Shown piece after piece: positions 17,801-64,000 of a stretch of DNA of 64,000 nucleotides. The notes below the pieces were generated by a model, which worked only from the letters and a program-made list of their open reading frames with translations, had not been told where the DNA came from and made no database searches. The translations under genes and the position numbers were made by a program. This DNA is from Fistulifera solaris (taxonomy: Eukaryota), in contig AP026135.1 in NCBI GenBank assembly GCA_030295235.1, forward strand, positions 434,001-498,000. Reading direction: 5' to 3'. Each line of letters opens with the position of its first letter. Within the stretch, counting starts at the first letter, position 1.

Positions 17801-20800
17801 GTTCAGTGTTTACAGGATTTAATCGGTCAACTGGAGGTAGAACCTGAGGAAGAGCCCCTGTTCCCTGAATTGCTTCACACACCCGGGGAATCAAAAGCAA
17901 AGAGAAGGAGACGCGAAGAGGGATTCATGGTCTTTGTAAAAGAGACTATGGTAGAGTTTCTGGAGCAAAGAAACGTTCTGATCATTCTTGATGATATTTG
18001 CTTTGACCCGGATTTAGATTGGTTCGATTTTACGCCACAAGTTCCGTCCGAGGAAGAGGAAGGATCATGCGTAACACTTGCAACAAGTCGGCGCCGCAAT
18101 TTACTTCCAGCTGCTGACACTGTTGAGGTAGAAATGTTAGAACACAACGAAGCAGTTAAGTTGCTTGTACGAGAATCAGGCGCCTTAATGAAGGTGATAA
18201 AACCAGAATCAGCTGAGATCAACTCCGTCGTAGTGGAATGCGCATACCATGCTCTAGCTGTCAAGTCACTGGGGCGATGGTTGAATTTAAAACATGCGCC
18301 GGGAGGAACGCCTATAAGCTCTGCTGAGGAAATTCAGCGTGATGTGGTCCAATGCATGCAAACGGTAACCCGTAGCTCTACTGAAGAGGATGCTGACATG
18401 ATGTTCGAAATTTTAGACATGAGTCTATCACCAGCAATTGACGGTCACCCAACAATCATCATCAAATTTTGTTTTGCCGCATTTGTTAAGGTGTTTTGCG
18501 ATCGAAGCTTTATATCAGACTTTGCATTAGCAGATTCTACTCCCATCGTCCCGTTATCCATTACCGAACAACTATTTGACGCTTTGATAGATTTGGAGGA
18601 AGAATACTTGAGAAACGAAGGAAGCCTCGCAAATACTGACAAGCGCGATGCAGCCGGACTCATACCCGAAGCCCTCTCGTCACTAGGAATCTTTAAGGTC
18701 ATTATCACTTTCGTAGAAGAGGGCGAGGAAGGAGAAGAACAAGAAGAGAAGTATTACCAGATCATGCACAAGATACAAGAAGAATACGGAGAATATTTGT
18801 ACGAAGAAGAAAAGGCTCTTTCGGACCTTGTCAAAGATGGCGAGCGTCGATGGAACAGAGCCTTCGCGGAGACATACTTGTCTAAGCCAATAGATTGGGA
18901 CACCGAAGCACCAGATGCGGGGCTTGATTACGCTCTCGAAACAATTCCTTCCCATATGTTCAGAGGTGGAATGCTCACCGAAGCTGCCCAGCTTCTCTGC
19001 AATTCAAAATTTGTACGTGGGAGACTTTTCGCGCTCGGTCGCGAGAACGGAACTAGACGCCAAATTAAAGATTGCGAGTCTTTGTTTGAGCTGATGGTAC
19101 AACAAAAAGGTTCAGGGAAGAATAAATTTGATCCAAAGGGAATGCTCAAAAAGCTTATTCAATACTTGGCGATTTGTTGTATATGGACGAGGACGATTTG
19201 ATTAAAGAAGAAGGGTCACCGGAAGCTGTTGAGGTTGGGCGGAGTCATTTCGACATTGGCTTTTCGTTGGCAGAGAAGAGGTGTTGGGAAGCTGCAGTAT
19301 CACACTGGGATAAGAGTCAAGAGCTTCTCGTGTCCGCCCTCGGATTAGTCGAACTTGTCGCTGCAGTTTTGTTCAATGTAGGCGTAGTGTACGCTGAAAT
19401 GAGTGAGTACGAGCAAGCACTAGGATCCTTAAAGCAGTGCTTGAAAATCAGAGGAGCTATTCATGGCGAAGAGCACATTTTGTATGCACAAACGATACAA
19501 AAGATTGGCGATGTGTTTCTAAGCATGAGCGATTATCACGAGGCCATGGAAAGTTATAACTGGGCGCTCGATGTGATGCACATCGAGCCTAGTCATTATC
19601 GCATAGACATTGGAGACATTCTTGAAAATATGGGCAAGATTCACTACAGTAAAGGAGAAATTGAAGAAGCCTTACAATGCTTTCAGGATGCTTTACGTTC
19701 GCAGCAAGTTGACCTGGGAGATGACCATCCAGAATTAGCAACCACTTTCCATCATATTGGAAACTGCCTCTCAGACCAGGGCAAAACAGATGAAGCGATC
19801 GCCCATTTTGAGGAAGCTATAAGGCTAAAAAGTTTAGATCCAGAGGGCGGAGGAGAGCGAGATGCTGAGATTCTTACCCTTGAAGGCATGCTCCACAACC
19901 TGCGCGGTCGGCAAGGTCATGGCCTTGAATGCTATGAAAAAGCACTTCATGTATTGGTCACAAAGGTTCCTCACCGGAAAGAGAAGGTAGCATCCCTTCT
20001 CCACCTTATCGGCTGTGTTTATCTAATGAGCGGAGAGCACAAGAAGGCAATGAAACTTTTCGAAGAAAGCCTTCATGCGCGTCGAAAAGTACTTGGTTTT
20101 GTTCATTTGGATGTCGCTAGTACTCTTTTCAACATGGCATTTTTGCATCAGTGCCGCAATCGGCTTGACAGGGCTCTTAAATGCCTTGAGGAAGCCCTAA
20201 AAATCCGTCAGCTCCGACTACCAGATAGTGAAAAGGTTGCAGTTACGCACGAGAAAATTGGAAGCTTGGCACGCTTGGTGGGAAAAAACCAAGAAAGCCG
20301 AAATTGCTTTTGGGGAGGCCTTACGGATTCGAAAGATTGTGCATGGGGAGAATCATGTACGTTTGCACGCACGTTTGCATTTCATTTGCGGATATGCACC
20401 TATACTCACGATTGTTTCATTTCATAGGAGGCTGTAGCTACAGTGTTGCAAGAGCTTGGCGACTTAATGGACGATTTGGGCGAGTACGATTCCGCAATGA
20501 AGAATTATGTTCAAGCTCTGGAAATCCGTGAAAGCCGCCTTGGACCCGACGATCTTGCAGTCGCAGAGACATATTACAGCATGGGTTACACTTTACAAAA
20601 GAATCAAGCATCTGACCGTGCTCTCCAATGTTTTGAAGAGTCTTTGAGCATTCGCAAGTTTCAGCTGGGGGATGATTCAAAGGAAGTGGGAGACACGCTT
20701 AACATGATGGGATATTTACAAGCCCAAAGAAGTGAACTAGACGATGCAATATCATTACTTTGGGAATCTCTTCGTATAAGAAAGCAACACGAAGATCACA

Positions 20801-21573
20801 TCAAGGTATCAGAGACACTCAAGAACATTGGCAATGTACACAGAGAGAAAGCAGAGTACGATTTAGCAGTCGAATGTTACGAAGAATGCCTTCGAATTCG
20901 ACGGGCTGAGCTGGGCGATAACCACGAGAAGCTGGCGGACGCCTTAATTGCAATGGGAAACGTTCAAAGTGATATGAACGCCACAAGCGATGCTATGGAA
21001 TCATACAAAGAAGGTACGTTGTGATAAATATTGCTGTTGGCGTTGCAAATGCTAACTAACTCTCTTGTCATTTTTAGCTTTGACCATTCGAATCCGGATC
21101 TTTGGCGAACAAGACGAAAGTGTGGCTGCCGTCTTGCAGTACATGGGTACCTTGGAATTTCGCGCAGCAGAGCTTGACCGCGCTTACCAGCTTTTGGACG
21201 AATTCATTCGCATTCGACAAGAGAACGGAACGGAACCCGACGGTGACTACGTAAACGTCCTTTTATGATCGGCAATATCCACAAGATGCAGGGCAACGAA
21301 GAAGAAGCTCAAAAGTGCTGGACCGAGGCGTACGGTGTCTTCCAAGAGTTGGGTTTGGCAGAAGGCAACCCTCAAATCGCGGAAGTAATGGGAACTTTAG
21401 TAAAAGAGGCCGGTAAGGGCAAGAAAAAGCGACGAACAAAGATGAAGTCTCATTCCTCTTCCAATACGGACGATGAATTGCAGAGCCAAAAGGCATCGGG
21501 TATGTTTGGTTTACTGGCAGGCAAAATCAAAGGTGGCGGAAGAAGAAACAAGGGTGGGCACCAACTATCCTAA
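14885..21573 (+). CDS. Large NLR-like STAND protein: acidic low-complexity N-terminus, NB-ARC-type NTPase, TPR array
   Basis: P-loop GVAGVGKTT (17672-17698), RRFFHDGIAWV, Walker B VLIILDD, LATSRR, MHK at 18764, then many TPR repeats. ORFs join across homopolymer frameshifts (~15770, ~16730, ~19150, ~20285, ~21262) and introns ~20358-20427 and ~21014-21078. Confidence 0.75.
15271..15535 (+). repeat. Coding tandem repeat, 39-bp unit (EGSYYSDE[R/H/Y]GE[D/N]E) with a 78-bp higher-order period, ~6.5 copies
   Basis: Near-identical repeats of gaagagggctcatattattctgacgagcgtgg alternating with gaggaaggttcatattattccgacgaa. Confidence 0.92.
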
Positions 21574-21676: not shown

Positions 21677-23363
21677 CTAGACAAACCTACCACCTGAAGA
21701 GGAAAGTAGTCGAGCCCAAGCACCTTTTCTTGAACTCTGCTCCCACTCCATCCGACTAAAACTCCATTTTTCAAAAGATTTCTCAATACACAACTGCTTT
21801 GCCCCCAACCATGCGTCTATTGTCGCCGTCTCGGAAGTTTCAATCTCAATTTCGTGTTGACACCCCACCAGGCACCGCAGCTCTTGTTGGAGCCGTTCTT
21901 TCAAATTGCTCAATTGCGACAAACCACCGACCAACCGAATCGATCGATACAAGGCGGCTCGATACAGTATGGGGCAATCTTCAATCGACTGGTGAATCGT
22001 TTCGGGCAAGTTGGCCCACTCGACCGGCAGTCCCGCGTCGGACGGACGAAAAAGCGTTTCGGGAATCGCAAATCGTTCGACCGATAGGTTTAAAATTTGC
22101 TGCTGGGCCTCGGCTTCCCACCGTGTCCGTTCCTCTTCTTGGCGTTGTACGAGAAGCCGTGCTTTGATCTGTTCGAGCGATTCTTCTTCTTCTTCTTCTT
22201 CTTCTTCTTCTTCTTCTTCTTCTTCTTCTTCTTCTTCTTCTTCTTCTTCTTCTTCTTCTTCGTCGTCGTCGTCTGGTGAGTCGTTGACTTCCCCGAGATT
22301 CTCGTCAAAATCTTCATCTTCCTCCTCCACGTCTTGTTCGTTGAAATCATCATCGTCCTCACTATCGTCGTCATCATTATCGTCCTCTAGTACTTTCCCC
22401 ATGGCTTTCATGGCGGCTTCTCGACGCAAATACGGCGGCAATTGGACGCGTCCCCGAAAGGTCGTTTGATAATCCGGTAACACGAACTCGCGATCGTACG
22501 GACGTCTACCGGCCGGTAGTTTTGGGCTATCTTCATGTCTTGATCCCACTGCAACGACACAAAGGCGGTTTCTTCCAACACTTGTTGCAGTAAAAACTCT
22601 TGATCCATGAGATTCCATTGTCGATAACTCGCTTGATATTTCCATATCTGCTGCAAATGTCGACCACCCACCGCCATGCGACGAATGGACGATTCCTGGA
22701 TCAACTGGTGTTGAAAGGTCGGCACGACCGTCGTTTGACTCCATCCCAGATCGACGACACAACTGGTTTGATAGGTCGAATGCGGCTGTAGCGCAGCACA
22801 TAGCGGTGCTACGACGAATCCAACATGACCAAATTGAAAGTCGTCCATCCAAATGGTGGTTATTTGGTCCAAGAGGACGCGAGGACAAAAGGGTGGGACC
22901 GTGAGTAGAATAGCACAATGTTGTGGAGCAATCTTTGCTTCGAGATTCTTTTCCAACCCAATGCTTGGGCCGTCGCTCCAGGTATCACAACTTGCAAGAC
23001 ATCCAAGACTCTTTTCCAAACTTGGATTTGATTGCCTAAATTTACAATCAGAGAGCGTTCCGTCGATCGCGTCAGGTGCAACAAGTGCGTGGGATTTTGG
23101 ACGTCTGTCACCAGATCGCCGGCCAAAATGGTCCATTGTTGCGGCAATCGGGCCGTAATGTTCGGCATTCGACGGGGTTCTGTATCGGTCGTCCATCCGA
23201 ATTTGATCGAATCACCGCCATTGTCTAAAATTAAAATGCGAGTGGGTGCCGTTGTAGGAATAGTGCTTGTTGTGCTTGTTGTGGTTGTTGTCGGTGCTGT
23301 CTTGGTTTTTGCTGCCGTCGTTGCGCGCTTTCGCTTTTTCACAGGCGGTTCGGCTTGTACCAT
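21677..23363 (-). CDS. ARP6: Actin-related protein 6 (SWR1 complex)
   Basis: ILILDNGGDSIKFG, VVDLGWSQTTVVP, SYRQWNLMDQ, REFVLPDY, ERFAIPETLFRPSD, LVGGLSQLSNLKERL. Frameshifts near 22.95 kb and 22.51 kb. Confidence 0.85.
22181..22261 (-). repeat. (GAA)~27 microsatellite encoding poly-Glu in ARP6
   Basis: Perfect TTC run on the + strand, followed by a short GTC run (poly-Asp). Confidence 0.95.
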
Positions 23364-26519: not shown

Positions 26520-29191
26520 TCATAGTGCTCCGGCTCCCTTGCTTCTAAAGAAAGCTTGGAGTTCCTCGACGTGTTTTTGGACTGGTTTGGCATCAAAGGA
26601 AGTGGGAGATCGCTTTAGCCATCCCGGAAGACCGTTTTGAATGCGTTGGTCGGTCAAATAGCGGGTATCCAGAAGGAGAATGGAGGCAAAGTCGTTGGCG
26701 TGTCGGATAGCTCGACCGACCGTTTGGTTGACCGCACGTAAACAGAGATTTTGGTAGTAGGTCTGTCCGGTAATGACGGGTGATCCTCCACCGGTCATTT
26801 GAAAGGAATCCATCAGTGACATCTTTTCTTTCAACACGGGGTCGGTGAGATCCGGATACGGAAGTCCCACGACCACGACGCAGCGAGCCATTTCGTTGCT
26901 AAAATTGATACCTTCTGAAAGCTTACCACCAATGACAGAAAAGAGCAACGCTCCTTTGGAAGAAGCAGCATCACGAGAAAAAGCAAGTAACGTCGAGTCC
27001 ACTTGGTTTTGCAGTTTGGGTTCTCGGTGCAAATGTTTCAACTGTTCCAGCTTGTCCCAGACATGGGTCTTTCTCCATCGACTCACCAGCTGCGCCTCAT
27101 ATTGGTAGCTCGAAACAAAGACAACAACGCCATTCGGAACATTTCCAACAATCTTGATCAAAGCTTCGGCCAGTTCATCAATGATGGTCTCTTTTCCTCG
27201 TACCGTATGTCGAAAGTCCAGAGTTGCCCCAGTGGGCCCAGTGCCCCAGCATTGCAACAAGACATTCGAGTCAGGTACCACATGGTCGCACGAAAAGGCC
27301 GTGAACGACGCCGAAACAAATTGTTGAGAGACTGTCTTTGCAGAGCTCATTTCCGTATCCGCCGTATAAGCCTGTCGAAGGATGGATGGGTGATCGGGAC
27401 CTAACAACTCCGATGCTAAATGTGCAAAGGGGCGCATGGTACCACCCACGAGGGCTACGGCATGAGCCTCACGCAAAAGGTCTTGAAAGAAATACGAAGG
27501 TTTCAACAAGACATATCGCAGCGCCGGATGACGTTGCTGAGTGGATTGTCGAGAACCGGATTCGATTACGGTCGACTTGGGCCAATCGGTCACAATCTTT
27601 CCAGAATCACCAGGAAGTGTCAACTTTTCAATAAAAGCTTGCACCAATGACATGGCTGACACGTGTTTGGAGAGCTCCTGAACTTCTGTCTCTTCCTCTG
27701 ACTCACGTTTCGGAAGAAAGCCCATAAGCTTTTGCGAAAGACGAGATCGCTCCATGTAACGAAGTAGCTTGAACAGATTTATATTGGCTAGTTTCCAATC
27801 AAACAAGAGCTCCGCCACGGTCCGCATCGTAGTGTCATCGCTTGTCTTCTTGTTTTCACCCTGCAGATGTTTTTCCAACGCTTGCACAATTTTCCGGAGT
27901 TGCCCCAAGAATTGAATGTTTCGCGCCGAAAACCGGTCCGCGTAGCGTAGCACATAGTTCTGCAGTTGCATATGGGCCGTCTGCACGACAGGAAGCGACA
28001 GTCGACACGAATGCAATCCCCGTAACGCTTCCGGTAAATTGTGCGCTTCGTCAATGAGGACCAACGATTGTTGCAGGGCAAGACCCACGGCCGCGCGAAC
28101 CGACGACGACAATAACAAATTGTACGGCACCGTGACGACTTCGGCCGCCGGTAACGCCACGCGACTGGCGTAATACGCACACGTGTCTACCGTAGCCCCC
28201 ATGTGCGCGGCTTCTTCAATGTCAGTGGGATGTACTAGAGTATGCAAGGCCAGTGTCTCCACAGCATCACGGGACGACAACAGAGGACAGCCACTGGTCG
28301 ATGATCGTTTCGTTTCGGCCGTCGAACCTTTTGTAAATCCAAGCACGCTTCTGTGAGTGCCGCTTCCGGTTTGTGGTTCAGCTGGGTGTTCCCACACAGT
28401 GCTTTCCGACCCCCAAGGCCACGACACGTAACTCGGATCCCCACACCGTACGACGCAATTCATTGACGAATTGCGTCAATTGCGAATGCGTCCGTGCCGC
28501 GTAAATGATTTTCCGAATGCCCGATCCTGCTACTACTTGAGCTACCGCGGGTGTGGCGGCGAAAGAGCCATCGAGGTAGGGGCCATACAACAACGAAGCC
28601 GCTGGCGACAGTGTCATCGTCGGCTCTTTTTTTCAAAAAGGCATCGTCGTTTTCGTCTTCATCTTCCGAACGGTAATCCAATTTGACTTGCTCCGTTGTT
28701 GGCGGAGTACTCGACGTTCGAGGACGCTTCTTCGTGGATTGTTGTTGTTTCGCCCGAATCACGGCCGTCCGTAATTGCTGTTGCAAGGAGGGCCAGGGCC
28801 GCAATTGTTCGAGGTGTTGTCGTAGTTTCGTGCGCGCTGCTTGTGCCATCTGGATGACTTGTTCTTGTTCCTGCTGTCGATCCCGCGTCAATGGCGGAAC
28901 CCATTCATCCAACCAATCAATACCGGTCGTTTCATCATCCTTCGTCGCAGGATGGAGCAAAAGATCTTGTTGTTCCTGATAACGCAACCATGAGACAGCC
29001 GCACACGCTAAACTGAGTGATTTACCCGTTCCAGTGGGACTTTCTAACATGTAAAGGGGAGCCTGTTGTTGGGAAAAGTCGCGCTGTCGCAGGGACTGCA
29101 ACAAAGCATCCATGAGCGCGACTTGTTGCGGATACGCTTCGAAGGGAAAGGCTACCGATGAACCCGTCGGAAATTCGTCTGGGGCGATCAT
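26520..29191 (-). CDS. CHL1: DDX11/CHL1 XPD-family DNA helicase
   Basis: FPFEAYPQQ, ESPTGTGKSLSL, YAARTHSQLTQF, VALG.RK.LC, CAYYASR, IDEAHNL, GGKLSEGINF, VGLPYP, RAVNQTVGRAIRHANDFA. Several frameshifts at 28.3-28.65 kb. Confidence 0.87.
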
Positions 29192-33935: not shown

Positions 33936-35298
33936 TTATTGATTTTGGAAATACGCCGCAAAACGACGATGCGCTTCTTGTAACGTTTCGGCATTTTTGC
34001 AATAGGCAAATCGCAACAAATTTTGGGCCAACGGTACATTCTCGGGACTGTAAAATGCCGATGGTGGAATCGCCGTGACACCGACCGTTTGCGTCATCCA
34101 TCGACTGAGGGCCCAATCGCGGGGCATGGGCGTGACCGGCATGGCGGGAGTTTTTTCCATCGAAGGATACGGAAACTCAATCGCCGATGTATCGGCCATG
34201 ATGAAAAAAGCCACCCGCGGGGACAATCGGTGTCATACCGGCCGCTTGCAAAGCTTCTACTAACAATTGTTGTTTTTGATGATAATCGTCGGCCAAATAA
34301 TCATATTAGGACGGCAAGCCCTGATACGGTTGTCGGGCTTGCACTAGTGCTTGCGCAATGGCATCTTGATTGACGGTCGGTGCCGAAAAGGTCACCCATT
34401 GTTGGACGGCGGTCACAGCTTGGACCAAATGGGGTGGTCCAACAGCCCAACCGACTTTCCATCCAGTACAACTGAAGGTTTTGCCGGCCGAACTGAGCGT
34501 CAAGGTTTGATCCCATAACAGGGATGCCATAGGAACGTGGGGTTCTTTGGTTTTATCAAAGACCAAGTATTCGTAAACTTCATCCGCTATGACTGTGATC
34601 CGAGGATGTTTTCGTACAATTTCGGCAATTCCTTCCAACTCTGTTTGCGAAAAGATTTTGCCCGTCGGATTGTGCGGTGTATTCAAAATAAAGGCTTTCG
34701 TCTGCGGCGTAATCGCTCGTTCGAATTCCTCCAAATCGAGTTGGAAGTAATCACTGGCACCGGAGGCGTCCGACGAAGGCCGCAAGGGCACATAGACGGC
34801 TTTCCCACCAGCCATTTGAACTTGACTGCTATAAATATCAAACGCCGGTTCCAATAAAATCACTTCATCTCTGGCTTGAATCAATCCCATCAAGGCACAA
34901 TACAAGGCGTGCGTACATCCGACGGCGGTTGCGATGTGTGTTTCCGCAACTATATCGGTTCTTTGTAATTTGGAATTGTAATCGTCGGCCAAAACGTGGG
35001 CGAGGGGCATATGCGCGGCACTCCGGGCGTATTGATTCGCGTTTCTTTGATAGACGGCGGCGTGCATCGCGTTTTGGACAAAAGCTGGTGGATCTTCCTC
35101 GGGATACCCTTGTCCTAAATTGATGGCTTGATGTTGTGCCGCCAAGGGGGAAAATTCGTGCCAAACGGTCGGACGATCCAAACCTTGCAAACGATCAGCC
35201 AACACGAGCGATGAAAACAAACGACAACCACGACGACTCCTCGTCTGGTGTATCGTGCTACGACTACTCAAAGCCAAGACCGCTTTTCGTAAATTCAT
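33936..35298 (-). CDS. Kynurenine aminotransferase / glutamine transaminase (class I PLP aminotransferase), probable mitochondrial presequence
   Basis: AINLGQGYP, NQYARSAA, ILNTPHNPTGK, DEVYE, SAGKTFSCTGWKVGW, VTAIPPSAFY...LRFAYCK. Frameshifts at ~34.2-34.3 kb. Confidence 0.88.
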
Positions 35299-35343
35299 TG
35301 GTGTAATAATAACAAGAAGTAATGAAAATAATAATAAAAGAGA

Positions 35344-35382
35344 GAATGAATGAATGAATGAATGAATGAATGAATGAATGAA
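35344..35382 (+). repeat. (GAAT)9 microsatellite upstream of the aminotransferase gene
   Basis: Seen directly. Confidence 0.95.
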
Positions 35383-35648
35383 AAAACGAAACGAGATTGT
35401 TTTGCGATGCAACATGGACACATGGATTGGAACAAAAATGACAGCACCGACGCAGTACAGTATCACGTATAGTAGAATCAGTTCGATGCATCGTTCAGTT
35501 TACCATTATTTCACTCTCTACTGGTACAGTACTTGTACTGTGCCCGACGACGACCTCCTTCGTCCCCCTCACAACATCGTCACAACGTGTACGAAACCCA
35601 AAAAACAACATTATCTATCTTTAGACTCTTATAGTGCCATTAAAAGAC

Positions 35649-40937: not shown

Positions 40938-42842
40938 ATGTGTGCAACCCGTTTCTTCAACAAAAATAATACCCTTTCGGTCCTAATGCCGCTTCTATTC
41001 TTGTCACTGGTACAGCGGATCCACGGCTTTTCTCCAGTCCTATCCGGGCAGATTCGAACACGGCCTCATCGATGGATCCGCTTGGCGAGTTCGACCGTGA
41101 ACGACCTTTCGAGTGAAGAAAAGTCCGCGCTCGAAGAAAAAATCAAATCAACAGGAGATCAAATAAGGGCACTGAAAGAATCGGGGGCAAATAAAGATAC
41201 ATTCGCGCCATTGGTACAAGAACTCTTGAAACTCAAGGCCCAACTCGATCCTGCGCTGGCCAAACCTACCCAAACCAAAAAGACACAGCAACAGAAGAAG
41301 CAACACTCGAACGAAGAGGAATCGGATTTTATTACGGCGCGCTCGGTGGATTACTCAAAGTGGTACAATGATCTCATTCGCGTGGCGGGTTTGGCGGAAA
41401 CATCGCCGGTACGTGGATGCATGGTCATCAAACCGTGGGGAATGTCATTATGGGATCGGGTTCGCAACGAACTCGATGCCAAGATTCAGAATCGGGGTGT
41501 GGAGAATGCTTATTTCCCGCTCCTGATTCCCAAATCGTTCTTGTCCAAAGAAGCCGAGCACGTCGATGGCTTTGCCACCGAATGTGCGGTGGTGACACAC
41601 CACCGCTTGACGGCGGATCCGGACGGCAGTGGTCTGATTGCGGATCCCGAGGCCAAATTGGAAGATCCATTGATCATTCGTCCGACATCCGAGACCATGA
41701 TTTGGTACATGTTCCGCAAGTGGATCAATAGTCACCGGGATTTGCCGCTCAAGATCAACCAGTGGGCTAACGTGATGCGCTGGGAAATGCGAACCCGTCC
41801 CTTCCTCAGAACATCTGAATTTTTGTGGCAAGAGGGACACACGGCCCACGCCACAGCAGAAGATGCGGTCGAAGAAGCAAGGGCCATGTTGGATGTATAT
41901 GCCGATCTCTGTCAGGATCTTCTGTCGATCCCTGTCGTCAAAGGCGTCAAGAGTCCGTCCGAACGATTTGCGGGAGCGTCAGATACATACACAATTGAAG
42001 CCCTCATGCAGAATGGCTGGGCGCTACAATCCGGCACTTCGCACTTTTTGGGCCAATCATTTGGCAATGCGTTTGATGTTACTTTTCAGGATCAGAATGG
42101 AGAACAACAACCTGTTTGGGGAACGTCATGGGGCGTATCGACCCGCTTGTTGGGTGCTCTCATCATGACCCACTCCGACGATGCAGGGCTTGTCTTGCCA
42201 CCAAAGGTAGCACCTGTGCAAGTCGTAATTGTTACTATCCCACCGAAGAAATCAGACGGTCCAGAGGTACAGCAAAGACTCAATGCAGCAGTTGACGATT
42301 TGGTTGAGAAATTGAAAGCGAAAGGTATCCGGGTGAAAGTTGACGATCGCGACTATGTGCGAAGCGGTGCAAAGTACTTTGAGTGGGAACGAAAGGGTGT
42401 TCCTCTCAGGATTGAAATCGGTCCACGCGATGTTCAAAATGAAGTATGCGTGTTCAAATACAGAGTGGGCGATGTCGAAAGAAAAAGCGTATCGTGGGTA
42501 GATGCCGCGCAGATGGTTGAAAGTGGTTTGAAAGAATTTCAGAGTGCTCTCCTGGAAAGAGCGAACGAACGTCTGCAAGATGGTATTCGTCAAGGGGCGA
42601 CGTATGCGGAAATGAAAAGCTTATTGGAAAATGATGAGGCTTCGGAGTACAACGGTCCTGGACTTTTCCTCGTCCCATGGAAGTGCGATGCTGACAATGA
42701 AAGAAAAATCAAAGAAGAATGCAAGGCAACGATTCGATGCTATCCACTTAAAGAGAATCAGGAGGGCATGCATGAGGGCCAAAAATGCTTCTATAGTGGC
42801 GAAGAAGCAACTCATATGGCTCTATTCGGTCGCGCTTTTTAA
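40938..42842 (+). CDS. proS: Proline--tRNA ligase (archaeal/eukaryotic-type, organelle-targeted, WHEP-like N-terminal segment)
   Basis: YSKWY, PVRGCMVIKPWG, IRPTSET, RDLPLKINQWANVMRWE, FLWQEGHTAH, LQSGTSHFLGQ, SWGVSTR, KATIRCYP, FGRAF. Signal peptide with IHG-FSP; the real start may be 40986. Confidence 0.93.
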   Translation: MCATRFFNKNNTLSVLMPLLFLSLVQRIHGFSPVLSGQIRTRPHRWIRLASSTVNDLSSEEKSALEEKIKSTGDQIRALKESGANKDTFAPLVQELLKLKAQLDPALAKPTQTKKTQQQKKQHSNEEESDFITARSVDYSKWYNDLIRVAGLAETSPVRGCMVIKPWGMSLWDRVRNELDAKIQNRGVENAYFPLLIPKSFLSKEAEHVDGFATECAVVTHHRLTADPDGSGLIADPEAKLEDPLIIRPTSETMIWYMFRKWINSHRDLPLKINQWANVMRWEMRTRPFLRTSEFLWQEGHTAHATAEDAVEEARAMLDVYADLCQDLLSIPVVKGVKSPSERFAGASDTYTIEALMQNGWALQSGTSHFLGQSFGNAFDVTFQDQNGEQQPVWGTSWGVSTRLLGALIMTHSDDAGLVLPPKVAPVQVVIVTIPPKKSDGPEVQQRLNAAVDDLVEKLKAKGIRVKVDDRDYVRSGAKYFEWERKGVPLRIEIGPRDVQNEVCVFKYRVGDVERKSVSWVDAAQMVESGLKEFQSALLERANERLQDGIRQGATYAEMKSLLENDEASEYNGPGLFLVPWKCDADNERKIKEECKATIRCYPLKENQEGMHEGQKCFYSGEEATHMALFGRAF

Positions 42843-54200: not shown

Positions 54201-57200
54201 ACTCATGTCGTAGCCTCTCGGTCTCGCTGACGGACGCACGCAGCTTATCAAGCTCGCACTCTTTTTCAGAAAGTAGAGCAATTTGCTTCCTTGAAACTAC
54301 TTCCATATCCGCTTCGTAGCGCTGTTTTTGCTCCAAGAACATTTCGTTCTGCTCTTTCAATTCTTTCTTCAATTTATTCGCCTCCAACTCTGCATCTTTC
54401 AACGATTCGGATAGTACCTTGCAATTCTCCTTTGCGGATTCAATGTTTGTCTCTAGTTTCTGGCGCTCTACATAGTGCGCCGCCCTCCAGCTCTGAAATT
54501 CATTCTCTGTGTGTGCATTCTTCTTTCGTAAGCATTTTAGCTCATCTTCGAGTGAACTGTTCACTTCCTTGATAGTGGATAGCTGCTCTTCTAAACGCGA
54601 CTTTTCCTGAAGCAACCCATAGCACTTCGCTTCGACTGAAGATAGAGCTTCTTGAGATACAGCGATCGTTTGTTCTGACACCTTCGCTTTGGCAAGTGCT
54701 TCCTCTCGCTCTCGCTGTAACTCTAAGCGCAGTCGGGAGCATCGATCTTCTGATTCAGATGCACTTTTGCGAATTGACCTGAGAATGGTCTCCATTGTCG
54801 CTTTTTGAGAACGAAGAGAGGAGCATTCTTCGGTCAGCTCCACGATTTTGGAATTCATTTCTTCTCTGGTAGTAGTATAAGATTCGTTCGTTTTCGAGAA
54901 GTGGGCACTCAAATCAGAGTACTGTGAATATGCTGCTTCCAAGCTTGATTTGCAGCTAGTCAGTTCCTCCCGGGCTCGAAACAATGAGTCTCGGACATCC
55001 TGCAACTCATCGTCCCGCTTCAAAACCTCCATTCGTTTTTCAGAGAGCTGTAACTCTGTAGCCTCTAAAGCTTTGCGAAGCTCTTCGATTTGATCTGCTA
55101 ACTCCTCGTTTAGACGTCGAAGAGACACTATTTCTTGCTGGGAAATTGACTTCGATGACTCAAGAGATGTGCATCTTTGTGCGATCTCTGCGACCTCTCG
55201 TCTAGCTTCCGCAAGATTAGCTTCACAATGTGCCTTCTCTTTTCCAAGCAGTACTTCAAAGCGTTCTTCTTCCTCCTTACGAACCATAGCCTCTCGAGTT
55301 GGCCAGGAGAGTAGTTCCCCTTCGAGATGCCTTACCTTTACCAACGTAGCAGCAAGTTTCTCCTCGCACTCGATCTTCTTCGTCATCATCTCGTTCAACT
55401 TGTTTTCTAAGTCATGAAGCCGCCTTGCAGTTGCAGTTGCTTCTTCGGACTGAGATATGATCATCTCGCTTTGCTTCTTAGTTTTCTCAGACAGTTCATT
55501 CAACTCTTGTTGATACTTTTCTTGATTCACTGAAGCGGTATCACGCAAAATGATCAGTTCCTTATGAAGAGCATTTAGCGAATCCTGCTGCTGCAAATTC
55601 TCTGCTTCTGCTAACTCAAGGTTCTTTCCAAGATCTTTGATCGTCTGTTCATTGCTTTGCATATTCTTCCTTAAACGGCTTGTCTCGTCATTTCGTTCGT
55701 CCAACAGAGACGTTCGAGTCTCGAGCTGATTCTCTAAGGCTTCGATTCTGGATTGGTAAGTAGCTTCGGCTCTCTCCCTGTCCTCTCTTAACGAAGCAAG
55801 TAGATCATGCAGATTGTTCTTCAGCGCCTCTTTGTCCTCACAAGTTCGTCGCTTCTCTGCTTCGTGGGATCCCTGCATACTACGTATTTCCAAAGCCATC
55901 CGGGACCTTTCTTCGTCAAACGCTCTGATCTTACTTGACAGGGAGGTCATTCAAGCGTGCAACTTCTCGCTTGTGTATATTCTCTTGCTCTTCCATCTTT
56001 ATGTTCATTAGAAGTAGCTGGCGTTCGCTTGCCTCTAACCTAGCTTGGTAGATCTCTACATCTCGCTGCAATAAAGAATCCGATGCCTCGAAATCCTTAA
56101 CTTTTGTGTTTTCAAATGAGGAGAGGTGGAGTGTAGATGCCTCGTGATCTCGACGTTCACTTCTTGGTGCTACTCCCTCCAGTAGTTCCATCTGCTGTCT
56201 CATTCGATCATTTTGAGCACGAACATCCTCAAAAGCCAAATCCCACTGTTCGATCTCATTTGTCTGCTGTTTTTGAAGAGTGTTCCGGTACGCTACTAGA
56301 GAAGCCTCGGCCATTTGCTTCTCTCGGCGCGATATCATCAATTCCTCTTCCATTCGCTGTCGCTCCGCGATAATAAGATTACTTTGCTGATCCATCAATT
56401 CCTTTTGTTGGAGCAAAGTAATCCGTGCTTGACTTAATTCCTGTAGCAAGTCATACTTTTGCTCGAATCCCGACCGGAACTCGTTACTGCCGTCCGATCG
56501 CGACGATTCGAAAGTGCTGCCATGAATCGATCCGACACCTCGTATTGGCACGACGCCTGCGACCGTATCCAGAATCTTTTGCAGGGCAGCTCGTTTATTT
56601 TTGCCAAATACGACTCGACTTTGCTGTGGAAGTGCCTTGACATTAGCAGGCGAAAGAAGATTATCCGCTCCGTTGCTTTCGAAAGCGGTTTTGCGAGGTT
56701 CACTTTCGACGGCTCTCAGCGACATCATCGATGGATTTGGAGTGACCTGAATAGTGCGACCGATTCTACCCGTCGTTTTAGGAGGGGAATTCATGATCGA
56801 CTTATTACACGGACGTCGGAATGTCATTTCTCGTGTAGTAGTCTGTTCTTGTAGTAGCTCAAGAGTCTGTTCATAGGATGATACCGGTTGTCCATTCACT
56901 GCAATGACCTCATCTCCGGGCTGAATTACTCCCGACTTTCTTGCCGCTCCTGGATTCTGAAAACCACCGTCAACAAATTTTTGCACGCGAATGGCAGAGT
57001 GACTGTCTTCGTCCAACTCTAAACCAATGGGCCCCGGAGAGAAGACGACGGAGTACGAAACATAATCAGGAGAATGATTGTGATCTCGTCTGGGTGCTTT
57101 CCGATGCGAGAGTTTCGCTTTCACTTTCTTTTTCGGAGTGACAGAGTTATGCGAGATCAACGTTCCGAAACGACGGCCGTCTTGACGTCGAGGAGGCTGA

Positions 57201-57294
57201 TTAGGCAAAAGAGACAAATATATTAGTTGACGTTCTCTCGCCGTATTGATACAGATTCGCGCCAAATGATACTTACAGTCTTAGAGCCAAGCAT
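51298..57294 (-). CDS. Giant (~1,900 aa) coiled-coil protein with N-terminal PDZ domain
   Basis: Exon MLGSKT (57294-57277), intron to ~57197, then PGPIGLEL...GVIQPGDEVIAVNG (PDZ). Heptad-rich ORFs 55931-57265, 53749-55950, 53522-53776, 51901-53553 and 51298-51657 join across frameshifts. Confidence 0.7.
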
Positions 57295-57823: not shown

Positions 57824-60800
57824 TTAACGCGCAGAAAATCCACAATTTTGAGCCCCGAATATGTTGTCTGGGTCGAGAGCCCGTTTGAGGTTTTGCTTTG
57901 CATCGATCCACTGTGGCGAGTCAATGTCACCGAGAAAAGCGGAACGCGTCTTGCCGATCCCATGATGGTGACTGAGCGAGCCACCAAGTCGCAGAATCTC
58001 TTCCCGGGCAGCATGCTCGATATCCAAGAATACGCGACTCGGGTTTGTAACGTTTGCACTGCTCATCGAGAAGTAAAAATACAAACAAGCACCCTCGTGG
58101 TACAACTGTGTCACACGACATCCAATAAAAGGAGATCCAGGTAGACATCGTTGTGCATGCTCCCTTCGTATGCGATCTTTTACAGAATCGACCACAGTTT
58201 TGATTTTCGACCACGGCACAAAGCTCTCAAATGAGTCTCCCAGAAAATTGTACGTGAGAGCAAAATCGCGAAGATAAGCGATGAGAAAGGTAAAATTGTA
58301 GCCTTGTTCTCCCACAGCTGCGCCCAAATTAAAACCACCATGGCGACTTATCAGTTTCTTTAACATTTGCTTTTGTGAATCGACTTCTTCGCGTGATCCT
58401 TCATAAAGGATGGTTGTACATACAGTCGACATGGAGTCAAAGTCTTGTCTCCATTTCAAGTAAAGTTCACCTGCACTTTGCCGTAAAGATTGTAGCACGG
58501 AATCCGGATTGGCTCGTAAAGCCCGTCCTAATCGAAAGTGATCGTTGTCCAAAAGACGAATACTGGCCGGGCAACGAGACCCCAATCTTTGTACGTCGCG
58601 AACAAAAGAAAGTCCGTGATCAAAAGAAGGTAGCAAGACACTGTCGTAATCTTGCACCTTTGATAGCGGCCAAATCCGTATTACGGCACTAGTAATGATT
58701 CCAAGACACCCCTCTGAACCGAGGACGACGCCAAGAAGTTCCAAGCCAGTAGCTTCACGTCCCCATACCGGAAAATCACCCCCTCGGCTACTATGGGCCA
58801 TGATTCCTTCCGGACCCGCAACACGAACCGAAATAACAATGTCTTCAATATTCCCATACTTGGTTCTCTTCATGCCACTAGCTTTCGTGGCGATCCAGCC
58901 TCCAAGCGTGCTAAACTCGTAGCTGTCTGGTTGATGACCTATTGTATATCCAAACCGCTTCATCTCTTGGACAAGTTCTCTACCAGTAATTCCACACTCG
59001 ACATGTGCGACTTCATTTTCCTCGTCAACAGCCAAAATTTTTCGCATTTCGGTCATGTCCACAGATATTATTGGTCTAGGGTCGACGTCGATACTTGGGC
59101 ACTTTGTTGCTTGAGACACATTTGTACCCCCCACCAAAAGGAATCAAACACCAATTTTGGGATTGTGCCATGCGAATAAGTTCTACCACTTGACCTTCGG
59201 AGGAAGGCCACACAACAGCATCAGGGACTCGGCCAACAGAGCCATTGCGTACGTCCCAAATGTCTGCCAATGAGTGACCAGTTCCATGTCGAATAAGCTC
59301 GTTGTCTTCGTACGAAACTTTCCAGGAGATTTTCTCCAAGAATACTTTGTTTTCTGAAGAAAGGGTAGACAAAGGAGATCTACTGGCTGCCGCAACATAT
59401 TGGAATGCTTCATTATAAAGATCAATTGATAACCCCGTTTCTCTCTGGAGAAAAGGAACAAGGTCACTGAGCTGTTTGCCTGCAGAGGAATATTTATTCC
59501 CATCCATCGTAACGTAAGCGCCGCCGCTTTCATGTGGCTTGATGACGAAAAATGAATCGCTAAATCCCCAAAAGCCCAGTCGCTCTCCCGAGGAAAGACT
59601 TGCGTTATTTATCTTCGGGAATTCCGTGAGCAACGGAGAAGCGTTGTCATCTTTCTGAAACTTATCGCGTAACTCGTGTGATATTGCAGCTTTCACCAAT
59701 ACTATTGGACACCTCTTCTTTGTTAATATAAATTGAAGAACATGGCAGGCTTCGGGGTTTGGAAAGCCGTTAGCTTTGAGCTGCGCTAGAGCATCTTTCA
59801 CACACTCCGTTGCCTCGTCAAATTGATGCAGCAAAGCCAGTGTCACAGCGGAAACAGAAGCTTTATCGAATATTGTTTTGTCCACAGTGTTCTCAACGTG
59901 AAAAAAGAGCCACTGGGCCCATAGTGGTCTTGATTCAATAAACAATGGTGCAAGGTACGCACTAGCCTGAAGTGCTACGGTCCAAAGTTCGTCCTGATCA
60001 GAAGGAATCGAAGAAATATAACCTTCCTCCCGTAACCACAGCCTACAACCCAGCTCGGAGAGAGCTTCCTTGACAACTGACGGTGTAAGGCCGAGAAGAT
60101 GAGCAAGGGCTGATATATGGTATGAAGATACCATCACCTGAGATGCCTGTCGTCGTTGAATTTCGATCACTAAATCATCAATATTATTATTCTCTGCGCT
60201 GGGAAGTGTGACTGCGTCGCAAGCAGAGAGCCACGCCTGCCGAGTCGAATTTCTCCGCTAAAGGCCGCCTGTGTAACCGGTGCATAGGGCGTGGGGCGTT
60301 AGCGACGACGATGACACATTGGCACATGCAACGAGACTTACAAATGCCCACGAGAGCAAACCCTTGGTACTTATGTCATCAGCCGACGAATTCCGGATAT
60401 CCTCGACTAATGATGGTTGCTCCGGTATCTTTTCATAGGACATTGTTATCGGGATAATGCAGTATTTGTGACTGTTTGTCGATAGGCAGCGGAGTACACC
60501 AGTTTTTGGACGCACAAACCGCCTGTCTCGGCTTCTAGTGCCCTCAAGAAAGACTTCAATAACTGCACTTGCTGGTAGCTCATTTAAACTTGCTTCGAGT
60601 GAAGGGTCAATGCGACCACGATTTCGTTTGACGAAGACCGCACCCAGAAGTTTTGCCATGATCCCAAACACGGGAAGCCGCTCAAAACTATCTGCTGAAA
60701 TGATAAAAGGTAAATCAATACCTAATTCTGGGAGTGCAAAGCACACATAACTCAGTAACAAGAAGTCGAAAAATGATCGGTGTGTCGAAGCAAGGATTAT

Positions 60801-63800
60801 CCTTGTGTTCTTATTCATTTTCAGGTCACGGAGAACGTCGCAAAAACTCCCCAAATCAACAATCACGCTACTGAATATAGAACATAGAAGTCTGTTCAAC
60901 AAAGCTCCCACAACCCTGACAGCAATCGGTCCCTTTGGCTGCATGAAAGCCCACAACCAAGCTTGAATCCAAGAGCACTGCTCATTCCCTGCGACTTGGA
61001 TGTCTGCAACCTTCGGCATCACACTGTTTACCCGTTCCCGCTGTAAGAAGCGCGATGCACTTGATAGGCAGATCATCATATAACGTTCACCATCGAAATC
61101 CGGAGGAGCAATCAAGTCGGAAGAAAAATAGAACGATGAATTCATGAAAGGAAAGAAAAGAACGGGTAGATCGAGAAAACGACTAAATCTTCTGCCTTGG
61201 TCCATGCAGTAGCCACAAGAAGTATAGAAAGCAAGCAGTGCGCTGAAAGGGTTTTCCACAAAAAGTTGGTGCAGTTGTTTAAAGCGTGACACCGTTAAGT
61301 TTCTCGGTAGAACACGCGTCGCAACCCAAAGGCCTAAATACGCAGTTAAGCGACTGAAGTATCCAAGGATCACACCAGTCTGAGTAATTGCGACAGCAAA
61401 TTGAAGCCAGGTAAACTGAGACTTAGTATTGGACGACACATCCCAAGCGGCAACATGTATCGTGTATCTAGGCTTCGATCTTTCAGCATAGATTGAAACC
61501 TTCTCAAAGTCTTCATCCGACGACGAGGATCGATCTTCTTCTGATTCGGAGGATGACAGTCGGTGGCGAATAGTTTTGTTAGCAATAAATCGAGCAAGAA
61601 CATCGACCGGGATGCAGGGCACTGCATGGTCACCGAAGGACCAAATATTCCACTGATACGAGAAATAGAGACACGGGGCGGCAGTTATTGTTGAGGGCCT
61701 GGATCCAGCCCATCCTTTCAAAGATTCACAGACTGCAGGACCGACAATGCTCGGACGTATAATTATCGTGTTTAAAGAGATATTCTGGAGGAGATGCTCA
61801 ACTACGCACTTGCTAAGTTGGTAGGCGTTGGAGAAACCCAAATCATTCATAGCTTTTGTCGCATAGTATTGGGTTCCACACATCGACTTGTAAACGTCGA
61901 CAGGGTCGTAAGGTTTCATGTCAAACAGATTGTTGCCCAATGGACTATCTATCGATCCTTTTGATCACCATGAACGAAAGCAGTGCTGATATGAACAAAA
62001 TTGACTTCTTGGTATGGCAGTTCAGCTGCTAGGCGTTGGACGTTCAACGCCGAAGAAATATTGGATTCAGCCGCCTCCTGCAATGACTGAGTAAAGCTGA
62101 CAGTTGCAGCACAATTGTAAACATGCGTAATGAACGGTTCTTCTTTTAGCTGTTCAAGGCTTTCCGCGGCCAGACCAGCGTTTGCCTGGCTTATGTCACC
62201 CGGCATGACAACAATGGCTGAGAAAAGGTCATCTTTGGGCACGCACGAAAAGATTGGATTTTCGAGCAAGCGATGTATCCTCTCGTCGGAGGAAAGGCCC
62301 CCTTCGGCCGAACTATGACATAGATTCGTTTAATAGAGTATTGTCGTCGGCGGCAGAGCAATTCACGGAGAATCGTCGAACCAACGAAACCGGTAACACC
62401 TGTTAATAAAACGGAACGTTCCGTGTCGCCGGTATCGAAATCAGAATGAGTTTCATCGACGACGTCGACGAAGTTTAGATCATCCAAATTTTTAGTCACT
62501 GTTGAAGGATGCTTGGACCCCAAATCGAACAAATATGAATATTTTGCGAAAGCGTTGGAACTTTCGAGGTAAAAGGAGGCCATTTTCAAACGTAAAAACT
62601 GCGTCGCGAGGATCGCAGTAGCAATGACACACACCATGACAGAGAATAGTATGGTGCAAACTTTTACCAGGAAAGTGCTGAAGCCATAGAATATGGAGAA
62701 AATGAATGAAAAGGCAACCCATGAGCGAAATGAAAAAGCAACGTTTTTGGCTTTCATAGTCTTCATTCCTACCCCGGCCCCGAAATTGCTTATGGATTGT
62801 GGTAGATTGTTGATCCAGTGTGATGATATTCGATGTGCCCCATTGGACACGGGCAAATACATAATTCGTTTCATAACACTGTAAGCGCGCGGGCATTTCT
62901 CGGACTCCCCCTATGCAACGGAGCTGCGATGCACCTTGCGTGGCATCAATTCCATGGTTCGTCAAATATACACAAAGATCCTGCACATTGTTAGCAAGTA
63001 CAGGGAAAAGCCAACATGCGTGAAAGTAGGAAGGATCCAGAAAGCGTGGGACTCTCACATCTGCTTGATGCCGGAGAACGTCGGCCAAACGTCCACAATG
63101 CCGTCGACGCGCCGAAATGAGTTCAGCTGTGCCTTTTCCCTGCTTCATACGGCGAATCAATAAAGCAAGCAAGCTAGAACACGGCATAAATCTGATCTGG
63201 GCCATGTAGTCACCTCTCACTTCAGTCGAGCTTTTGAAGCCACGAGTAAGGGCTGTAGCGAAAGTATCGAAGTCCAAGCGAACGCTTCGAAAGAATGAAA
63301 CCAACAGTCCATAAATGACGGGATGGTCCGTAACTAGTCGAATAAGTAATGCTTTGCAGACTTTGGAGAAGAAAACTGCATAGGACTGGCGATCGGGGTA
63401 GCAAGCTGAAAACAGACGCTTCATAGATTCATGCGTTTCTTTGTCGCGCACGATAGCCACGCCACCGCCCAACGCTGTCGCCGTTTTAATGAAACCGAAA
63501 GAGAAAAGAACAATATCCGAATATGGACTCCCGAGGTAAGTGCCGGTATCGTTTTCAGTCTCTGGAAGCCCACCAAAGCACTCCGCACAGTCTTCAATTA
63601 ATTCCACACCGCGACTTCTACAAACCGTGTGTATCCTTTGCATATCTTCCGAGCTCGCCGTTAGCATTCCAAAGACATGAACGACAATAATGGCGACCGT
63701 TTTGTCTGTTATCGCGTGTTCCACTGCATTCATATCCACCAATATGAAAGGCCTGTCTCCGTTGTGTTCTGGGATATCAACAGGGACGACTTCTAATCGA

Positions 63801-64000
63801 TGATGTCGTAAGACCTCTTCGATTCCGGGAACTGTAATAGGCGGACAAATGATAATTTGCGATCCCGAAGGAAATCGTTTTGTGCGTAAGTACAGATCGA
63901 GAAGAGTCCTAGCAGAAAATCCAGGTATTACTCCAACATTCTTCCCCACACTTTGCTGCCATAAATCAATGATTTCTTGTTCGTAGTAACTAGTATTCGG
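57824..64000 (-). CDS. Multidomain fusion: DegT/DnrJ-type PLP aminotransferase, TM hairpin, fatty acyl-CoA reductase, DHAP acyltransferase (GNPAT-like), alkyl-DHAP synthase (AGPS); 5' end lies beyond the window
   Basis: DegT: IEDCAE, SFGFIKTATALGGG. FAR: LLTGVTGFVG, VYNCAATVSF, HISTAFV, NAYQLSK, IIRPSIV. GNPAT: THRSFFDF, FLEGTRSR, IPITMSYE. AGPS: WGFSD, PDAVVWP, PFGGGTNV, GHQPDSYEFSTLGGW, GMKRTKYGNIED, SHHHGIGK. Domain junctions fall inside ORFs; breaks are short indels and one intron (~60340-60270). Confidence 0.8.

Follow-up and report, generated by a model that had tools for sequence, protein, structure and literature searches.

Why should an aminotransferase share a polypeptide with the enzymes that begin ether-lipid synthesis? 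The question is raised by a gene of the diatom Fistulifera solaris, found in a window of 64,000 nucleotides (GenBank assembly GCA_030295235.1, contig AP026135.1, positions 434,001 to 498,000 of the forward strand; all positions below are those of the window). A single long gene, its pieces spread across several reading frames, occupies positions 57824 to 64000 of the minus strand, where the window ends. It places a conserved pyridoxal phosphate (PLP)-type aminotransferase domain on one chain with the three enzymes that make alkyl-dihydroxyacetone phosphate (alkyl-DHAP): fatty acyl-CoA reductase (FAR), GNPAT, and AGPS. Ether-lipid synthesis is thought to proceed from alkyl-DHAP to alkyl-glycerol-3-phosphate by reduction. 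We propose instead, with a probability of roughly 55%, that the PLP domain carries out a transamination at the C2 ketone of a DHAP skeleton, be it that of DHAP, acyl-DHAP, or alkyl-DHAP, and would thereby yield a serinol-phosphate-type amine.

P0166, catalogued as the window's own protein, has 2220 residues, arranged as ACBP, PLP domain, transmembrane hairpin, FAR, GNPAT, and AGPS. When mapped onto the window, it is identical, letter for letter, to all of the frame pieces. Residues 187-2220 lie inside the window, while residues 1-186, the region occupied by the ACBP domain as in relatives, lie past 64000. A six-part ether-lipid enzyme with a PLP domain is unprecedented. Its features within the window are as follows.

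62788..64000, minus: DegT-like PLP aminotransferase domain, P0166 187 to about 590 (Pfam PF01041, motifs, and model); it runs off the window, and its end at 62788 is an estimate from stand-alone relatives
63598-63581, minus: PLP-binding Asp, in IEDCAE (motif, invariance)
63487-63485, minus: codon of the Schiff-base Lys (motif SFGFIKT)
62906..62911, minus: one-base indel (62908) in a G5 run, which splits the PLP domain across two frames at P0166 550|551 (sequence, P0166 mapping)
62593..62724, minus: hydrophobic linker between PLP and FAR, P0166 612-655, in an open frame (translation, Kyte-Doolittle)
61590..62415, minus: FAR domain, NAD_binding_4 (Pfam on three frame pieces, P0166 mapping; limits approximate)
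62409-62377 and 61823-61809, minus: FAR motifs TGxxGFxG and YxxxK, respectively (motif search)
62299 and 61958, minus: one-base indels within FAR, in a G5 run and an A4 run, respectively (P0166 mapping)
60438..60815, minus: PF01553 acyltransferase, GNPAT/DHAPAT-like (Pfam E 5e-19), with HxxxxD at 60782-60765
60269..60341, minus: 73-nt GT..AG intron (P0166 mapping; junction GTAAGT...TTTAG)
About 60237 and 59126, minus: one-base indels, in an AA pair and a G6 run, respectively (P0166 mapping)
57824..59600, minus: AGPS domain, FAD_binding_4 plus FAD-oxidase_C (Pfam E 5.8e-24 and 1.2e-31; P0166 mapping)
57970-57953 and 57826-57824, minus: AGPS motif HHHGIG and the stop codon (motif search)
62492-64000, minus: frame piece matching DegT_DnrJ_EryC1 (E 4e-21)
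62191-62874, 61949-62269, and the start of 60258-61940, minus: frame pieces matching NAD_binding_4 (fatty acyl-CoA reductase type)
60258-61940, minus: frame piece matching Acyltransferase PF01553 (E 5e-19)
59076-60170 and 57824-59137, minus: frame pieces matching FAD_binding_4 plus FAD-oxidase_C (alkyl-DHAP synthase type)

Do these parts form one gene? Frame 62191-62874 meets no stop codon between the PLP domain's C-terminal tail (CPRAYSVMKRIMYLPV) and the GxxGxxG of FAR, with about 45 strongly hydrophobic residues in between. Because the PLP tail and the FAR nucleotide-binding motif share this frame, a separate PLP gene is ruled out. A first-pass annotation, made from the letters of the window, had placed the PLP domain on the same gene as FAR, GNPAT, and AGPS, and this is borne out by the open frame, by P0166, and by a 2287-aa MMETSP transcript, marked 'type:complete', that has every domain of the fused protein. 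The same annotation saw no reductase domain in the part of the gene inside the window; in fact, a FAR-type NAD(P)H reductase lies just downstream of the PLP domain, although it is not the acyl/alkyl-DHAP reductase that the statement had in mind. Introns are ruled out as the cause of the frame changes at five of the six junctions, where the gaps are only -1, +1, or +2 nt; the intron at 60269-60341 is the sole real one in the in-window part of the gene. Within the linker, 19-residue windows above 1.9 on the Kyte-Doolittle scale start at P0166 residues 625-637 and nowhere else in the protein, except for one at 1216, and the segment 612-655 is probably one or two membrane helices. The nearest named relative, GAX11233.1 of Fistulifera solaris (P0151, 2218 aa), is collinear throughout, with a PLP domain 82-83% identical to that of the window copy; it is annotated as alkyldihydroxyacetonephosphate synthase.

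Part of this arrangement has a precedent in FARAT, a FAR-GNPAT fusion known in ciliates, amoebozoans, discobids, some fungi, and myxobacteria (PMC13012113). Like the diatom protein, FARAT (Tetrahymena TtFARAT, M. xanthus MXAN_1675) has FAR and PF01553 on one polypeptide and feeds ether-lipid synthesis (PMC13012113). The diatom protein differs in having an N-terminal ACBP and PLP aminotransferase, a membrane hairpin, and a C-terminal AGPS in addition. The FARAT-type motifs TGxxGxxG, YxxxK, and HxxxxD, which we take to be the catalytic motifs of the FAR and the acyltransferase, are intact in the window, where FAR (PF07993) and PF01553 likewise lie on the same polypeptide. In the main text of the FARAT paper, the words aminotransferase, DegT, and diatom do not occur (PMC13012113), and a study of cryptophyte peroxisomes covers FAR and AGPS, not the PLP domain (PMC9244630).

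Is the PLP domain a genuine aminotransferase? The six DegT motifs quoted in the first-pass annotation are all present on the minus strand: IIVVHVFG (63691-63668), IEDCAE (63598-63581), SFGFIKT (63502-63482), GGGVAIV (63469-63449), WLFPV (63013-62999), and IMYLPV (62865-62848). They had been read as the motif set of one domain, which needs the amendment that IMYLPV lies in another frame, beyond the indel in the G5 run at 62908. The match to PF01041 scores 76.1 bits against a gathering cut-off of 19.8 and covers profile positions 65-200 of 360 only; the C-terminal half of the domain falls outside it, and the model has additional helices after the Lys strand. This AlphaFold model, of the 365-aa piece in the window (whose residue numbers are used here), was built on an alignment of 82 sequences (A2) and has a mean pLDDT of 93. 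All of the top 50 listed Foldseek matches belong to the DegT family (probability 1.0, TM-score 0.54-0.64, 17-21% identity), among them Fic25, GDP-perosamine synthase, HCAN_0200, QdtB, WecE, ArnB, KabA, NtdA, and BtrR. By sequence, the domain matches solved structures weakly (best E 3.7e-9). In 7n63, the regions FSF..GK and IEDCAQ line up with SFGFIK and IEDCAE, respectively; as a candidate DHAP transaminase, 7n63 was ruled out, since it is the sugar aminotransferase HCAN_0200. None of the NCBIfam equivalogs was reached, with scores of about 50 bits (best 53 versus a cut-off of 423) and cut-offs of at least 370, and a search of the ESM Atlas gave generic DegT clusters only.

Exhaustive phmmer searching gave 3204 relatives at E<=0.001 and 169 at E<=1e-30. 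Conservation was counted on 152 aligned domains, and the second alignment, A2, agrees. Lys172, which would form the Schiff base, and Asp137 of EDCAE are invariant in 59/59 fused and 79/79 stand-alone relatives. Ser167, His108, and Trp330 are also conserved, and Arg31, Arg253, Arg270, and Arg284 are conserved in at least 85% of the aligned domains. The domain truly belongs to the DegT superfamily, within an uncharacterised subfamily of its own, and the catalytic residues lead us to infer that it is an active transaminase. It shares with the DegT sugar and inosose aminotransferases fold-type I, the Asp of EDxAxxxG, and the Lys of the SF..K motif. It differs from the sugar enzymes in its low identity (17-21%), a TM-score of about 0.6, an unmatched C-terminal half, and extra helices. 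The partners differ as well: those of this subfamily are glycerolipid enzymes, whereas those of the DegT sugar enzymes are nucleotide-sugar enzymes. A DegT gene reported in work on horizontal gene transfer in dinoflagellates (PMC2064935) was also considered for membership and rejected, as it is of the classical WecE type.

With what is the domain associated elsewhere? Among the best 150 relatives, 88 consist of the PLP domain alone and 54 are fused to FAR, mostly as ACBP-PLP-FAR-AcylT, with at least 10 of these also carrying AGPS. The others are PLP-GlpO (2), PLP-FAD_binding_4 (3), PLP-ACBP or ACBP-PLP (2), and PLP-Exo_endo_phos (1), and Pfam bears out these architectures. A length-restricted search for long relatives (n=52) found PF01041 together with PF07993 in 51 and AGPS domains too in at least 21; these fused proteins include those of Cylindrotheca fusiformis, Amphora coffeaeformis, and Skeletonema marinoi. 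Both AGPS counts are lower bounds because many gene models of 1300-1600 aa end inside the acyltransferase domain (...KTGFLR). Two eukaryotic proteins of about 1700 aa, P0440 and P0441, join a PLP domain to domains of ionotropic-glutamate-receptor type and are possibly merged gene models.

A FastTree phylogeny of 158 PLP domains was rooted on four other DegT proteins; its support values are SH-like only, and it has many open forks and several composition warnings. All of the fused eukaryotic PLP domains form one clade (62 rows, support 100), and the four short rows inside it are fragments. The sister of this clade comprises 24 rows (support 95), all PLP domain alone, of which 18 end in a strict type 1 signal for peroxisomal targeting (PTS1), or 19 when -SQL is counted. 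In a nearby clade of seven, which includes a PLP-ACBP protein, PTS1 is present in all seven, whereas it occurs in its strict form in 0/66 other short, bacterial-type relatives. Named animal orthologues, nearly all annotated as 'uncharacterized protein', end in -SKL or -AKL in 40 of 48 cases; three tunicate models lack the signal. The orthologues come from echinoderms, amphioxus, tunicates, hemichordates, molluscs, annelids, and nemerteans, and further from a soft coral, a centipede, and bdelloid rotifers. GNPAT and AGPS are themselves enzymes of the peroxisome. Together with the PTS1 endings, this places the eukaryotic branch where DHAP, acyl-DHAP, and alkyl-DHAP are handled.

The sea-urchin-type orthologues (P0068, P0070, P0091, P0220, P0235) are 680-810 aa long. 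In P0068 and P0070, a Ser/Pro-rich low-complexity stretch of 250-350 residues follows the main PLP body, and in P0070 it precedes a final conserved ...YIPV... segment and -SKL. A search of solved structures with this C-terminal extension of P0070, which has a low-complexity look, found no relative.

Bacterial relatives offer a second view of the partners. The 117 mid-length relatives (550-1750 aa) have the following architectures.

89/117: PLP-FAD_binding_4 fusion
18/117: AcylT(PF01553)-PLP fusion
6/117: PLP-GlpD/GlpO fusion (DAO plus alpha-glycerophosphate-oxidase C-domain)
1/117: PLP-CDP-alcohol phosphatidyltransferase fusion (P0397)
3/117: other architectures

The FAD_binding_4 partner is nearest to DprE1, galactonolactone dehydrogenase, and alditol oxidases (E 1e-13 to 1e-22). 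A reading of these proteins as PLP-AGPS fusions was ruled out, as AGPS matches at only 1e-7. One protein of 1338 aa, P0203, carries PLP, GlpD-like, and Omp85 domains together. Among unique loci in which the PLP gene is full-length (n=103), 9 have a partner fused to it or within 1.5 kb; three chosen queries supplied these loci, so that such fractions are not a population estimate. The partners in these nine are AcylT in 6, GlpD-like in 5, and FAD_binding_4 in 1. Gene orders around PLP genes, including those of MAGs, are the following.

L019, Rhodothermales: Exo_endo_phos / AcylT / PLP / GlpD-like
L039, Gemmatimonadota: PLP / GlpD-like, with AcylT convergent
L025, a cyanobacterium: PLP, with AcylT convergent
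L116, Actinomycetes: AcylT-PLP fusion / GlpD-like
L120, Gaiellales: AcylT / PLP / GlpD-like, with overlapping stops and starts
L121, Dormiibacterota: PLP / GlpD-like
L129, Gemmatimonadales: AcylT / PLP / SDR
L006, Nitrospirales: FAD_binding_4 / PLP

With the PLP-GlpO protein P0058 as query, a search of loci gave no relatives; with the PLP gene of L019, it found few close relatives, among which the context is not conserved. In Pedobacter (L058, L066, L070), a lone PLP gene lies downstream of a LysR regulator and a PALP-family PLP enzyme (beta-replacement type), a context unlike the GlpD/AcylT modules. The first-pass annotation had asked whether homologs co-occur with FAR, GNPAT, and AGPS genes in bacteria and protists. 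They do so in the diatom fusions; the bacterial modules and fusions are without FAR. An association with a source or users of DHAP is found in the PLP-GlpD/GlpO fusions (6/117), in the GlpD-like neighbours (5/103 loci), and in the diatom fusion to GNPAT and AGPS.

What substrate would unite these settings? An FAD oxidase that converts a secondary alcohol to a ketone, coupled to a PLP transaminase, is a standard way of installing an amine. With GlpD or GlpO as the oxidase, the ketone passed to the transaminase would be DHAP. Acyltransferases of PF01553 use glycerol-phosphate-type acceptors, GNPAT uses DHAP, and CDP-alcohol transferases attach small phospho-alcohols. Given the fusion and operon partners, the peroxisomal orthologues, and the joining of the diatom domain to GNPAT and AGPS, the C2 carbonyl of a glycerone-phosphate skeleton would serve most economically as the common substrate. 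With glutamate or the like as donor, this carbonyl would be aminated to form a 2-amino-2-deoxyglycerol-3-phosphate (serinol-phosphate) backbone, and the amination would stand in for the usual NADPH reduction to glycerol-3-phosphate.

The step could come at either of two points. The PLP domain may act last, on 1-O-alkyl-DHAP or 1-acyl-DHAP, to give alkyl- or acyl-serinol phosphate. This order would be required of a single assembly line, because the mechanism of AGPS needs the ketone, and it would explain why the PLP domain rides on a membrane-anchored lipid enzyme. Alternatively, free DHAP may be converted to serinol phosphate, which would then become a backbone or a head group. The PLP-GlpD fusions that lack an acyltransferase suggest this order, as do the one fusion to a CDP-alcohol transferase and the animal proteins, which are soluble; this order is also the simplest reading of the GlpD fusions together with the known DHAP transaminases Cj1437 and RtxA. 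Taken singly, each order is possible rather than probable, and the two are about equally likely. The proposal in the first-pass annotation, that alkyl- or acyl-DHAP is aminated, thus finds backing in the conserved catalytic residues and in the ties of the subfamily to the chemistry of DHAP and to acyl transfer in glycerolipids, while its choice of these substrates over free DHAP does not; its alkyl-serinol idea is plausible and unproven.

The proposed reaction has precedents. C. jejuni Cj1437 converts DHAP to (S)-serinol phosphate (PMC11800397), and the N-terminal domain of B. elkanii RtxA converts DHAP to serinol phosphate (PMC3222319), so that both catalyse the transamination of the DHAP C2 position proposed here. 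However, neither is a lipid enzyme: both are soluble and bacterial, and they serve to make a capsule amide and rhizobitoxine, respectively. The acyl/alkyl-DHAP reductase (DHRS7B/PexRAP) acts on the same C2 ketone, directly after GNPAT and AGPS (PMC7517302, PMC13200781). It is an NADPH reductase that yields a hydroxyl, whereas the diatom PLP domain would yield an amine. As for products, N-acyl serinols are made by gut bacteria, including by the nas synthesis of Gemella (PMC13012048, PMC10666787), and the didemniserinolipids are serinol-based lipids of tunicates (PMC7344992). Lipids built on serinol therefore exist in nature. Presumably, the N-acyl serinol synthase of Gemella carries an aminotransferase domain and the didemniserinolipids are ether-linked. 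Full-text searches of the literature on the PLP family, on peroxisomal DegT proteins, and on serinol-type phospholipids and ether lipids found nothing relevant.

Several observations weigh against transamination of a DHAP skeleton. The literature searched yielded no serinol-type (amino-)ether lipid from diatoms, and the diatom protein ends in -SAR, which is not a PTS1 ([SAC][KRH][LM]). Among the DegT-family PDB matches, the named ones are aminotransferases of sugars, sugar phosphates, inososes, or secondary metabolites. No GlpD-like, acyltransferase, or FAD-oxidase neighbour lies within 1.5 kb in 94 of the 103 loci. The nearest solved structures are sugar aminotransferases (about 17-21% identity), and the commonest fusion partner (89/117) is a DprE1/alditol-oxidase-like flavoenzyme that, by analogy with DprE1, may oxidise a lipid-linked sugar and not a glycerol. 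These last two points suit an ordinary keto-sugar aminotransferase, acting on an NDP-sugar, a sugar phosphate, or a lipid-linked sugar, whose fusion to lipid enzymes would reflect co-regulation or a glycolipid step. The Pfam, NCBIfam, and structure matches are all to sugar or inosose aminotransferases (PseC, QdtB, perosamine synthase, ArnB, BtrR, NtdA/KabA), and DprE1, going by the molecule names of the matches, oxidises lipid-linked ribose. All of the sugar-enzyme matches are distant, however, both in the NCBIfam scores and in identity to the structures; in the 24 loci examined, no nucleotide-sugar genes were seen beside the bacterial PLP genes; the animal orthologues carry peroxisomal signals; and the product of GlpD-type partners is DHAP, not a keto-sugar. 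A keto-sugar substrate is unlikely, though the many DprE1-like partners keep it in play. The FAR domain suggests another candidate. Reductase and transaminase pairs make amines from thioesters in natural-product pathways, and PLP and FAR occur together in 54/54 eukaryotic fusions among the best 150 relatives, so that the PLP domain might transaminate a fatty aldehyde, made by FAR or by an acyl-CoA-fed half-reaction, to give long-chain primary amines. The ACBP domain beside the PLP domain, and the existence of a PLP-ACBP protein without FAR (P0099), would fit. Yet the bacterial modules and fusions have GlpD-like oxidases and PF01553 acyltransferases and no FAR, the animal orthologues stand alone, and the several conserved Arg residues would fit a phosphorylated substrate better than a bare aldehyde, which makes this substrate improbable.

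Slightly less probable again is some other PLP chemistry on a small phosphorylated amine, for example the conversion of phosphoserine to phosphoethanolamine, an ether-phospholipid head group. C. jejuni Cj1436, from the same capsule cluster as Cj1437, is a PLP decarboxylase of L-serine phosphate (PMC11800397). The CDP-alcohol phosphatidyltransferase fusion P0397 would also suit a head-group role. We take both Cj1436 and Cj1437 to be of DegT type. The fusions to the alcohol-to-ketone flavoenzymes (GlpD-like and DprE1-like), however, match the classic pairing of oxidation with transamination and have no place in a decarboxylation route. There is, finally, the state of the window copy itself, whose frame is broken by five one-base indels within about 6.2 kb and which could be in decay. 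On this view the copy would be a pseudogene, or its PLP domain a scaffold without catalysis, and to this we give the least credence. Runs of 4-6 identical bases hold four of the five indels, the frame pieces contain no in-frame stops, the intact 2220-aa P0166 fits every piece, and all 138 relatives keep the Lys and Asp. The window has further genes broken alike, namely an NB-ARC/TPR gene (16700-21024, plus strand) and an actin-like gene (21677-23196, minus strand), suggesting one-base indel errors throughout this part of the assembly. The frame breaks of the ether-lipid gene are most likely one-base assembly errors and not gene decay.

If transamination of a DHAP skeleton is accepted as the preferred reading, the diatom fusions, the invertebrate peroxisomal orthologues, and the bacterial operons would converge on DHAP-derived amines. 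The fusion and the peroxisomal orthologues of echinoderms, amphioxus, molluscs, annelids, and rotifers speak for an alternative fate of the ketone, or of DHAP itself, which would lie in the organelle where ether lipids start. A bolder and more tentative version is that diatoms and, judging by the PTS1 orthologues, most marine invertebrate phyla transaminate alkyl- or acyl-DHAP to a hitherto undescribed class of 2-amino glycerol ether lipids, with serinol-phosphate aminolipids in bacteria besides. The ether lipids would be 1-O-alkyl-serinol phosphate and its N-acylated, ceramide-like derivatives, and the bacterial route would run from glycerol-3-phosphate through DHAP to serinol-phosphate aminolipids by way of the AcylT/PLP/GlpD modules. 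If true, there would be a new lipid backbone, intermediate between those of glycerolipids and sphingolipids, and a function would be assigned to a family of thousands of members across bacteria, diatoms, and animals.

Other genes were seen in the window. Directly downstream of the ether-lipid gene is a PDZ-domain gene (55931-57265, minus strand), whose Q/E-rich C-terminal half has, by eye, a coiled-coil look. A class I/II aminotransferase (Aminotran_1_2, E 2e-39) lies at 34306-35466 on the minus strand, 27 kb from the ether-lipid gene. The minus strand also carries a gene with a VPS13 N-terminal region (270-1391) and an XPD/Rad3-type helicase gene (DEAD_2 plus Helicase_C_2, 26520-28463), and the plus strand encodes a prolyl-tRNA synthetase with a WHEP domain at 40938-42842.

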